Below, one piece after another: positions 474 through 2,934 of a stretch of 26,249 nucleotides of DNA. The notes beneath the pieces were generated by a model. That model saw nothing but the letters and a program-made list of their open reading frames with translations. It was not told the origin of the DNA and did no database searches. Positions within the stretch are counted from its first letter, which is position 1. Each line of letters starts with the position of its first letter. Source of the DNA: a virus; IMG/VR virus record IMGVR_UViG_3300027852_000031, positions 1 to 26,249 of that record; one strand, 5' to 3'. The position numbers and the translations under genes are program-made.

Positions 474-1734
474 AATTAGTTCCTGTGTGGTGACATAAAT
501 GAATTGGTCGCCATACCACATATGGTGTGAAACGCATATGATCCCAACGAAAAGCACCACACATATTGACGACCCAATCTGCGACGCGAATTCTCTACTA
601 TTTCAGGTACAAAGTTTTGTACTACAAAAAGAAGTGTTCTTCAATCTAATGCAACGCGCCAGGTATCTCACCGACGCGCCACAAAATTGACAAGCCATCC
701 CACCAGACTTGCCCGTTTCATAATATGGTAGGTGAGGAAACCCTTAAATTGTCACGTTCAACGCGACAAACACCGTTTGTCAATGTGCAACCATAGAAAT
801 GAAACTTCCCGGTCCGTAGACCACAACACCACTTTATATCACTCACATCCTAGCAAATAAAGTCTGACTATTTGTTAATCTAGGATGGTTTCTTGGAGTG
901 TTATTTTAACGACTGATCGAGCCGAGAGCGGTCGCGCCAGAGCGATAATTCCACCTATACAGCCCGTCCGTCGTGGCGTGTTGTTCAGCGTACCATCGGA
1001 CACATAAAGTGCTACCTTTAAACGTCTGACGAATCATCATATTCTCTGTAGAATTAACAAGGAATGATTTTCGCACCCTACCCAATTATAAGACCCCGCG
1101 CGCCGTCAGCACGACACAAAAGACCCAATAATAAAGGTCGTTGGACATACGAAAGAAACATTGACTTGATATGAGGAATGCTTATCCCACGCCAACATGA
1201 AAGCCTACACCTACCATAGACGGATTCCCATAGATAAACCGTGAATAATTAACACGACTGACCCTTGGACACTTTGCTGTCTGGCGCTGTACCAAACCCT
1301 TGCGCAATATACAAGGAATCGTGTAGACGATTCTCTATTTATCCCGCCCACGCTATTATGGCGTAGACCAAGCCCGCATTCCGGACTTTGCGTTGTGCCG
1401 CTGCTAGGACTGGCGTTCGTCCGATAACCGTTGACTCCCATTCGGACCCTGTCCGCACATCATGCGCGAAACTCAGACCCTACTAGGGCGATTATTGGAC
1501 TAATACCCAACCCCGTCCGGGAATACCCGACGCTTATCGGACTTCCCGCGTCATTTGTTATGGGAACCGCTGGCCCTGGATGCTGGACCTATAACGATAG
1601 GGTGCTACCCTACCAAGCGATTCAATCCAGACTTTAAGTCTGAATGTCCATCGGTCCACGCCCATAGACAATCCGTTACCGGACCCCACGAGTGGTCTAT
1701 AGACTACAGGCGCGGTGCGACATACACTCAGAGA

Positions 1735-2058
1735 CTACTTGCCCAAAAGCGCGAACGCCTTGCGAATCGCCCCAGTCGTGGCGCGATTGCCGAGAATCGT
1801 ATCAGCGATGACAGCGGCATTCTCGGACCCAAACCCGAGAGCGGAATCGGGAGTATAACCCGAACCGTTTTCGGACTGTGCCATGAGAGCGACGACGACA
1901 CTCTGGAGCGCACCGATTGCCTCATCGATATTGTCGTATCGACTACAGGCGTCAACAATGCGCTTGTGTTCCGCGTAAAGCACGGAATTCGCCATAAAGA
2001 CACTCTCGTTGAACACAGCAGGCGCAGACGTTTCGCGTTCCTTGGTTTCGGTGGTCAT
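1735..2058 (-). CDS. hypothetical protein (107 aa)
   Basis: ATG with GGAG RBS 8 nt upstream; protein-like composition; lies downstream of the promoter at 2245-2273. Confidence 0.75.
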   Translation of the reverse strand: MTTETKERETSAPAVFNESVFMANSVLYAEHKRIVDACSRYDNIDEAIGALQSVVVALMAQSENGSGYTPDSALGFGSENAAVIADTILGNRATTGAIRKAFALLGK

Positions 2059-2103
2059 AGTGAATACTCCATTAGAGTTATCACCCGCCCAACGCCAAGA
2101 CTA

Positions 2104-2240
2104 CCCGTCTTAACTATCGGACGGGCAAGTAGTTAGCGAAACTTATTCGGACGCAACTAGCGTGCGCCACTAATTATCGGTGGTTCTGATAACCACGTTG
2201 GAATGTCCGTTTTTGTAAGGTCGTTTTCTTTATCCTTACA
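2104..2240 (-). other. structured 5' leader or possible small RNA (four consecutive hairpins)
   Basis: Inverted repeats CCCGTC/GACGGG (2104-2125), TAGTTaGCG/CGCAACTA (2130-2159), GTGGTT/AACCAC (2180-2196) and TGTAAGG/CCTTACA (2214-2240), immediately downstream of a promoter. Confidence 0.4.
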
Positions 2241-2244
2241 TCAT

Positions 2245-2273
2245 ACTATAGAATTAGTTATACAAGCGGTCAA
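2245..2273 (-). promoter_or_regulatory. sigma70-type promoter
   Basis: Minus strand TTGACC-17 nt-TATAGT. Confidence 0.65.
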
Positions 2274-2859
2274 CGTCTAACTGAGAAAAAAGAATCGGCG
2301 TTTCTAGGCTTCAAACAAGGTTATTATCGCACTTTGTCCGGTAATATCGAATTGTAACAAAGTCCGCTTTTGGGGGTCTCATAATAGCTTCATTTACGCG
2401 CAGATCCAATAATATACCGGTATTATACGGTCAAAACCGTGATTTTATCGGAAGATCCTATAATATGTGTTATGCTAGTCCTATAATTGGGTCCGATAAC
2501 TGAGAAAACACCGAAAATGAGGATATTATCGCTCCGATCGGATAATAATTACGTCCGATAACCGAAAAAACGCTATGGAACACACAAAAATACCTATATT
2601 ATCACACAGGGTAAACGATTATCTGGACCACGCCGATAAGATGCCACCGCGCTAAGTCCAATAACCATTTTGTTGGGGTCAACAACATGGTCCTATAACA
2701 CAATGAGCACATATTATATTATAGGCTATCACGTATAAAAACCGCCCCACACACGCACAGGGTAAACCGTTCCTGGCTTCGACCGATAATCACTCACGGC
2801 GGTCGGTCCGATAACTGAAACTATGTCTGAGGGAAAAGGCCAGATAACGAGCCTTGTTA

Positions 2860-2934
2860 TTAAGACCAAAGTGCTACTGTAATGAGGATTGTCTTTAAGA
2901 TGACCGATAACCAGAACCGAGTCTCACGTCCCAT
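2860..2934 (-). CDS. putative 24-aa hydrophobic peptide (MGRETRFWLSVILKTILITVALWS)
   Basis: ATG lies 2 nt after the TAG of the upstream gene (TAGATATG); below the ORF-track length cutoff. Confidence 0.3.
   Translation of the reverse strand: MGRETRFWLSVILKTILITVALWS

Follow-up and report, generated by a model that had tools for sequence, protein, structure and literature searches.

The window analysed here, positions 1 to 26,249 of the IMG/VR virus record IMGVR_UViG_3300027852_000031, is the first 26 kb of a single-contig record of 166,379 bp that encodes a portal protein, a head protease, DNA polymerases and two sigma factors. Within its first 5 kb lies a block of approximately 3.5 kb in which copies of a 10-bp motif (GTCCGATAAC) are arranged around one site with the layout of dif, the bacterial Xer recombination site. 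The G+C content of these first 5 kb was 47%, compared with approximately 39% elsewhere, and the open reading frames (ORFs) in them were small and on the minus strand. Those of the motif block had no match in PHROG or Pfam, and a search of positions 1–6000 for Rfam-type RNA families returned no known family. Gene B (1735–2058, minus strand, 107 amino acids) and gene C (2937–3302, minus strand, 121 amino acids from its conserved start), neither of which belongs to a known family, were kept in 10 and 9 relatives, respectively. The start of gene C at 3302 was set by the alignment of its orthologues. To the right follow the small minus-strand genes D–H (3399–3602, 3737–4006, 3960–4223, 4223–4417 and 4455–4643), several of which were kept in relatives and two of which encoded hydrophobic segments. 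All five were dense in motif copies on the antisense strand. The products of genes B, C, E, F and H shared 40–60% amino acid identity with those of relatives, while a plus-strand ORF overlapping gene B (1555–2136) was not kept in distant relatives. Between genes B and C (2059–2936), the DNA was non-coding and rich in motif copies. The initial annotation had described minus-strand genes on both sides of a motif-dense and ORF-poor centre; the conserved frames of genes B and C, and the non-coding stretch between them, bear out this description.

The motif was found by k-mer counts and was converted into a 10-bp position-weight matrix of approximately 11.6 bits, built from the local copies, with which both strands were scanned. 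Its flanks carried no information beyond the 10 bp. At a threshold of at least 10 bits, the numbers of plus- and minus-strand sites were 2 and 7 in 1419–2200, 1 and 2 in 2201–2469, and 39 and 7 in 2470–4910. With at least 8 bits, they were 4 and 8 in the first of these intervals and 43 and 10 in the last. Since the other 161 kb of the genome contained only 24 plus- and 14 minus-strand sites (at least 10 bits), both arms of the block were enriched far over background. A flip in strand polarity had been claimed for this region from the letters of the window, and the matrix recovered all seven of the minus-strand positions named in support of it (1491, 1533, 1557, 1675, 1819, 1867 and 2113). Fisher's test on the two arms, with the boundaries of that annotation, gave p = 5e-4 to 2e-3. 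A change-point scan of the ordered strand labels, which requires no preset boundary and for which label shuffling served as the control, also detected the flip and placed it at 2444–2478 (permutation p = 0.0035).

The left, minor arm (1419–2453) contained approximately 12 copies, mostly on the minus strand, and overlapped gene B and the region at approximately 1163–1659. The right, major arm (2478–4903) contained approximately 43 plus-strand and 7–10 minus-strand copies, and extended across non-coding DNA as well as six minus-strand genes, to which it is antisense. It ended in an intergenic cluster of six evenly spaced plus-strand copies (4734–4903; spacing 18–37 bp), adjoining the point where leftward and rightward genes diverge.

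At the change-point, a dif-like core (2453–2480, plus strand) reads AGATCCTATAA TATGTG TTATGCTAGTC. It was composed of an XerC-type arm (2455–2463, ATCCTATAA), a 6-bp central region (2464–2469, TATGTG) and a second, inverted arm (2470–2480, TTATGCTAGTC), all given on the plus strand. The layout of an Xer/dif core, with two inverted arms of approximately 11 bp and a centre of 6–8 bp, was therefore present at 2453–2480. A strict core pattern (an XerC-type arm, six bases, TTAYG) had its single match in the 166-kb genome at this same place. When the core was taken as an a-priori boundary, the plus/minus counts in the window were 3/9 to its left and 36/7 to its right (p = 2.5e-4). The last copy of the left arm, TTCCGATAAA (2444–2453, minus strand), stood back to back with the core, 1 bp from its first arm; this copy, at offset −9 from the core, was kept in relatives. 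On the other side, a plus-strand copy at 2478 overlapped the end of the second arm. The motif copies outside the core, hereafter half-sites, predominantly pointed their inner (ATAA) end away from it, leftward on the left and rightward on the right. The 3.5-kb block is a two-fold symmetric halo of approximately 60 orphan half-sites (about 10 on the left and 45 on the right) around one core.

In Escherichia coli, dif consists of a left arm for XerC, a 6-bp centre and a right arm for XerD that starts with TTATG. Alignment with this site identified the motif as matching the XerC-binding arm. A full-text search with the motif string gave one relevant result, a survey of dif and Xer in Proteobacteria (PMC2731167), the other matches being mostly primers. 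The predicted dif sites in this survey include AGGTCCGATAA CATGCG TTATGTAAACT for Myxococcus xanthus and ACGTCCGATAA TATGGA TTATGGTAACT for Anaeromyxobacter, and in those of Geobacter, Desulfovibrio and Syntrophus, position five of this arm is C or T. The array variants GTCCGATAA, GTCCCATAA and GTCCTATAA are the same fifth-position variants as those in the published table. Among Planctomycetota, the pattern GTCCNATAA-N6-TTATG was present in 36 of 81 genomes, nearly always once, with 40 matches in total against 8 for the reversed control. Six of these sites were fetched and read ACGTCCGATAA, 6 bp, TTATGTTGC.... Based on their copy number and form, we take the single-copy sites to be chromosomal dif. 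Judged by sequence, GTCC[G/C/T]ATAA(C/T) is the XerC-binding arm of dif as it occurs in Deltaproteobacteria and Planctomycetota.

No extra half-sites were present within 1.5 kb of the six Planctomycetota chromosomal dif sites, indicating, on that sample, that the halo is an addition of phages. A metagenome-assembled genome (MAG) of Myxococcales (L169) carried a probable chromosomal dif at approximately 357–401 (ATGTCCGATAA CAGATA TTATGTCAACT), with a further XerC arm in direct orientation starting 17 bp upstream of its own start.

The initial annotation had likened the motif to polar elements that are oriented relative to a landmark, such as Chi, Ter and the FtsK-orienting polar sequences (KOPS). 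The idea of polarity around a landmark holds, since KOPS polarity switches at dif in chromosomes and the landmark here is a dif-like core. The comparison fails for a genome-wide word of the Chi or KOPS type, as the motif was confined to 1.4–4.9 kb of the 166 kb. A host-wide word of this kind was likewise rejected, with only 4–17 exact copies, not over-represented, in each of five candidate host genomes.

Viral contigs were scanned for two exact motif copies 8–38 bp apart, which yielded 95 loci, compared with 7 viral loci for an equally specified pattern derived from the E. coli XerC arm and a roughly estimated chance expectation of approximately 5. About 12 of the loci were on true relatives of the phage (contigs of 40–181 kb). 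Each relative had an array of 3–5 kb with 45–117 sites, the minor arm on the left and the major arm on the right, and the strand switch lay within the non-coding DNA immediately to the right of gene B. With the core as the boundary, the flip was significant in L016 and L018 combined (p ~ 1e-5; 9e-6) and in L005, L071, L066, L020 and L090 (p = 0.002–0.017), and it was thus present at the homologous place in at least seven related viral contigs. The pooled plus/minus counts were 23/45 on the left and 333/60 on the right, from contigs that share ancestry and are not independent trials.

Every relative covering the region had one core in the homologous place, and the core was unique in each of nine related contigs. 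The spacing from arm to arm was exactly 6 bp in these nine and in six contigs of an unrelated group of phages (group C, described below). The arms were kept across relatives, the first as GTCCTATAA or GTCCGATAA and the second as TTATGCTAGTC or TTACGCGAGTC. The centre, in contrast, occurred as TATGTG, GATGTG, GACTGG, TACAGG, AACACG, TACATA, GATATA and GATGTA. Conserved arms around a variable 6-bp centre are the pattern expected for a crossover site.

Two kinds of locus were set apart from the relatives. Many matches to the motif pair, in genomes and in viral sequences, were chance ones from coding tandem repeats with periods of 12, 18 or 21 bp in unrelated viruses and bacteria and were set aside; such false positives (L048, L198, L200, L103, L107, L121, L145, L182, L117 and L146) inflate searches of this type. 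Another locus (L144) lay on the chromosome of a 'Heimdallarchaeota' MAG (CP070695.1) and comprised genes C, E and F and the array of a phage relative. An archaeal prophage was rejected, because a run of N joins the phage fragment to cellular-looking DNA, and the junction is most probably an artefact of scaffolding or binning.

The half-sites were nearly as dense in coding DNA (15 per kb) as in non-coding DNA (18 per kb), and the antisense sites were spread over the codon frames as 7/7/6. The genes of the right arm contained 20 antisense sites, compared with a mean of 3.7 and a maximum of 9 in 500 synonymous shuffles. Since all three frames are used and the sites exceed the synonymous shuffles, selection acts on the DNA and not on the protein, with the protein sequences being shaped by the motif and not vice versa. 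In gene C, antisense copies coincided with conserved protein columns (VIGQ, LSD/E, FSD and RLxD), while other sites were lineage-specific. Gene B contained two variants of the motif on its sense strand, GTCCGAGAAT and GTCCGAAAAC, in a frame in which the consensus motif would create a TAA stop codon. Avoidance of stop codons was rejected as the origin of the strand bias: acting through TAA in one sense frame, it predicts a ratio of at most about 3:2, whereas 5:1 was seen, and it also fails to account for a flip within genes of the same strand.

The sole tyrosine recombinase of the genome, a protein of 296 amino acids, is encoded outside the window (130,924–131,814, minus strand). It matched PF00589 (E = 2.5e-42) and, end to end, the XerD and XerC models of NCBIfam (E ~ 1e-61, below their equivalog cut-offs); the archaeal XerA model was also matched. 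XerA and XerD were its closest solved relatives, and its active-site segments RVSEL, HxLR and the GH...Y tail aligned with XerA. These matches indicate that it is an intact enzyme of the XerC/D family. A recombinase of this family was found in all five relatives tested.

Half-site arrays were also present in phages unrelated to this family. Group C comprised circular assemblies of 60–98 kb with a core (ACGTCCGATAA, 6 bp, TTATGT...) and a stereotyped set of flanking half-sites, and a tyrosine recombinase was found in none of five. In T7-like contigs, the arrays were one-armed and sat at the right end, downstream of the terminase gene. In a complete T7-like genome, a single strand carried all 12 sites, located at 43,666–44,178 of 44,230 (the last 560 bp). 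Neither a core nor a recombinase was found in the T7-like phages with arrays. Other arrays lay in the context of a primase, an exonuclease or a CobT-like peptidase. All-against-all BLAST, profile-profile comparison and a search of whole-genome ORFs revealed no protein family common to the array neighbourhoods, which makes a host protein the most economical common binder.

On balance, we lean towards the dif-like core being a recombination site and the arrays being accessory sites for the recombinase. The core would be a site-specific recombination site of the phage, acting on circular replicative or just-injected DNA. Its use would be multimer resolution or cyclisation, as for Cre/lox in P1 and cer/psi in plasmids, or possibly integration at the host dif, and the phage recombinase, host XerC/XerD or the two jointly might cut it. 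Since the flanking half-sites have no partner arm, they would not be cleavable, and they may bind the same recombinase or recombinases, i.e. XerC or the phage enzyme, without being cut. Such accessory sites could concentrate the recombinase locally or organise the surroundings of the core into an ordered nucleoprotein structure, in a role comparable to that of accessory sites in Tn3 res or in the internal resolution site (IRS) of TnpI. The uniform head-to-tail polarity of each arm would prevent the formation of additional convergent, recombinable pairs.

Several observations weigh against an accessory role in recombination. The second arm of the core shared just its first five bases, TTATG, with XerD arms such as TTATGTTAAAT, and its outer part departed from them; in group C phages, this arm (TTATGTT/G...) was nearer to the Planctomycetota arm TTATGTTGCGT. 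The recombinase gene is not adjacent to the core but approximately 38 kb away from it. About 60 accessory sites would be spread over 3.5 kb, some of them inside genes, and we know of no accessory region that approaches this number and extent. An integrated relative was not detected, as the portal protein was not found in 301 Planctomycetota genomes. Lastly, the arrays of the T7-like phages, without a core or recombinase, imply a role that needs no nearby crossover site.

In the main alternative, which we consider doubtful, the arrays would act independently of recombination as a trap or roadblock for XerC. They would sequester host XerC, or form a length of protein-covered DNA at which a translocase such as FtsK or an SMC complex is stopped or unloaded, with the core being incidental or secondary. 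The occurrence of the same arrays without a core or tyrosine recombinase, in the complete T7-like genome and in other lineages, is consistent with this, as are the group C phages, which have arrays and no recombinase. The 55–117 sites per genome in the phage family also suit titration more than architecture. A precedent comes from Bacillus subtilis, in which the unloading of SMC complexes in the vicinity of the replication terminus depends on XerD, according to the passage of PMC8357415 that cites Karaboja 2021. Simple titration, however, requires neither strand polarity nor a flip centred on a conserved complete core. The conservation of the core arms, the uniqueness of the core in each of the nine related contigs and the retention of an Xer-type recombinase by the phage family also argue against a trap. 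The SMC unloading that Karaboja described in 2021 reportedly works through XerD-binding half-sites, without recombination. A broader version, which we would advance just as tentatively, is that several unrelated phage lineages, including the strictly lytic T7-like one, carry dense one-way arrays of XerC half-sites against the chromosome-terminus machinery of the host, the core being a later add-on. In that case, the arrays might sequester XerC, or the bound XerC might stop FtsK or SMC-type complexes, including SMC-based defences, or unload them from the phage DNA.

A role of the motif as a promoter or operator element recognized by a transcription or sigma factor of the host or phage, with the array regulating the early region, seems improbable. 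The sigma-28 −10 element is GCCGATAA, which part of the motif (tCCGATAA) resembles, and the phage encodes two sigma factors. Some of the copies in non-coding stretches of the window followed a TATAAT-like hexamer, and in two Planctomycetota genomes, approximately 10 of 14 single exact copies were just upstream of the next gene and co-oriented with it. Nevertheless, no conservation was seen on either side of the 10 bp in 566 + 387 sites. The lack of a conserved flank in these 953 sites means that there is no −35 partner, and a sigma-28 promoter was rejected as there was neither this partner nor any other flanking signal. Moreover, most copies were antisense within genes, and the motif was at background only in the other 161 kb, the expected location of middle and late promoters.

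The single GTCCGATAAC copies in the two Planctomycetota MAGs (L241–L256 in G003 and G004) lay away from dif and were mostly intergenic. The next genes encoded, among others, parB, a sigma-54 activator, gcvT, a TonB-receptor plug and a SpoIIE phosphatase. In these genomes, the stray copies look like a promoter or operator use of the same word. The two sigma-70-family factors of the phage were encoded at 22550–23131 (plus strand) and at approximately 129,800–130,300 of the genome (minus strand); regions 2 and 4 are present in the second, whose gene adjoins that of the Xer-type recombinase.

According to the initial annotation, the centre could be a physical genome end or a cut site, or alternatively a replication origin; neither proposal gained support from the sequences compared. 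A physical end or packaging cut site, with the arrays as terminus-proximal signals, is quite improbable. Among 43 viral contigs of at least 25 kb, arrays were nearer to contig ends than expected by chance (Kolmogorov–Smirnov p = 0.002), seven of them within approximately 1 kb. Breaks within the block or close to it were seen in six related assemblies, and in T7-like contigs the array comes after the terminase gene, at the right end. The break points, however, varied among relatives (window equivalents approximately −290, 0, +290, 490, 1180, 2820 and 4500), the orientation of arrays relative to contig ends was inconsistent, and the portal gene was approximately 25 kb from the centre, while no terminase gene was located. 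The 'terminal repeats' of the complete relatives G006 and G010 were 127-bp overlaps in non-homologous places; since these are k-mers of the assembler, both genomes are circular assemblies. In relatives G007 and G008, the two ends of the IMG/VR record were contiguous. It is more likely that the assembly breaks reflect assembly trouble or population heterogeneity at the block. In G007, the entire block was missing between the ends of its contig. A terminase-binding pac site was rejected, as the array was near a terminase gene only in the T7-like contigs and one other contig.

A replication origin, with the motif copies as iterons in two opposed sets like the DnaA boxes of oriC, is highly improbable: the cumulative GC skew of the full genome was lowest at approximately 2–5 kb and highest near 85 kb, half-way round the genome, and the centre contained A+T-rich tracts and a dyad, but the skew followed gene orientation, which switches at approximately 4.9–5.2 kb and not at the flip, the local skew did not change sign at 2200–2470, the genome encoded no DnaA-type DNA-binding domain and no initiator was identified, the motif also occurred in T7-like phages, which to our knowledge do not use iteron-binding initiators, and its identity with dif arms already accounts for it. 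DnaA boxes themselves share only TTATC with the motif and were rejected for this reason and for the lack of a DnaA domain in the phage.

Several other features accompany the block. A sigma-70-like promoter into gene B (2245–2273, minus strand) was composed of TTGACC, 17 nt and TATAGT, with both hexamers kept in relatives, and another for gene C (3351–3378, minus strand) of TTGACT, 16 nt and TATAAT. A terminator-like hairpin followed by a T run, found with a consensus scan only, was located downstream of gene C (2745–2762, minus strand). Given this hairpin and the promoter at 2245–2273, the core sits in an apparently untranscribed spacer of approximately 460 bp. The best-conserved DNA of the block was at 1163–1659, with 71–77% identity to seven relatives, above that of the adjoining coding DNA. 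This region contained conserved sites of the left arm and two weakly supported ORFs (1211–1441, minus strand; 1431–1637, plus strand), had no Rfam match and may represent a non-coding RNA or else a DNA element. A second repeat of approximately 35 bp (CACAGGGTAAAC ... CCGATAA) was present in two copies in the non-coding centre (2604–2640 and 2752–2790), one of which overlapped the terminator-like hairpin. Just past the array, a divergent intergenic region contained two exact copies of TACCCACTTTCAAC 26 bp apart (4998–5037), which may be an operator or promoter element of the rightward operon. Further to the right, 9990–10472 (plus strand) encoded an HNH endonuclease with two helix-turn-helix motifs, probably a homing endonuclease. 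Its family, represented by L005:1313–1939, was found near the block in several relatives.

In the literature found, viral Xer/dif sites are documented in small non-tailed integrating elements, whereas the present phage is large and tailed, and has both a dif mimic and an Xer-type enzyme of its own. The phage and several unrelated groups carry tens to more than 100 orphan half-sites of the XerC arm, in polar arrangement. We found no description in the literature of one dif-like core ringed by outward half-sites. If the half-sites bind XerC, they would represent either a new accessory architecture for tyrosine recombinases or the capture of a host chromosome-segregation protein by phages. The motif may also serve as a host-range clue from sequence alone, pointing to hosts with the dif arm GTCCGATAA, such as Planctomycetota and deltaproteobacterial lineages, and it would also explain the tendency of these phages' assemblies to be broken in this block.

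The closest known counterpart is bacterial dif with XerCD. The phage core has the same 11-6-11 layout, an XerC arm identical to that of Myxococcus, Anaeromyxobacter and Planctomycetota, a second arm starting with TTATG, one copy per replicon and enzymes of the XerC/D family; it differs in its location on a 166-kb tailed-phage genome and in its approximately 60 flanking half-sites. IMEXs (integrative mobile elements that exploit Xer), such as CTX-phi, VGJ-phi, TLC-phi and the dif-type double-jelly-roll and microvirus proviruses, have a dif-like attP, and thus are also viruses carrying a mimic of the host dif. Group C phages resemble them further in having a core and no recombinase. Half-site arrays are not known from IMEXs. 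The IMEX papers found name small, non-tailed elements, and the passages concerned do not mention such arrays. The phage family differs from these elements in encoding its own Xer-type recombinase, and no integrated copy was found in the 301 Planctomycetota genomes.

P1 Cre/lox and plasmid cer/psi likewise provide a single recombination site on a replicon that circularises or multimerises, and at cer/psi the DNA flanking the core shapes the reaction. The accessory DNA of cer/psi, however, binds other proteins (ArgR/PepA, ArcA), whereas that of the phage consists of repeats of the core-type half-site, and lox has no accessory sites. Additional uncleaved recombinase sites beside a crossover site are found in Tn3/gamma-delta res (sites II and III), the TnpI IRS (DR1 and DR2) and lambda attP, and the arm-type sites on the two sides of lambda attP have opposite polarity, as do the arms of the phage array. 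These systems have 2–7 sites within 100–400 bp. The lambda arm sites also differ in sequence from the lambda core and are read by a separate N-terminal domain, while the phage array is of core-type sequence; the phage enzyme, with 296 amino acids aligned end to end with XerD/XerC, has no room for an additional N-terminal domain. Among polar sequences (KOPS and SRS, the SpoIIIE recognition sequences), KOPS resemble the array in switching polarity at dif, but they are genome-wide 8-mers read by FtsK, in contrast to a polar word that is a recombinase half-site and is confined to 3.5 kb. The XerD sites at the B. subtilis terminus are also half-sites near dif, reportedly acting without recombination to unload SMC, although they are few.

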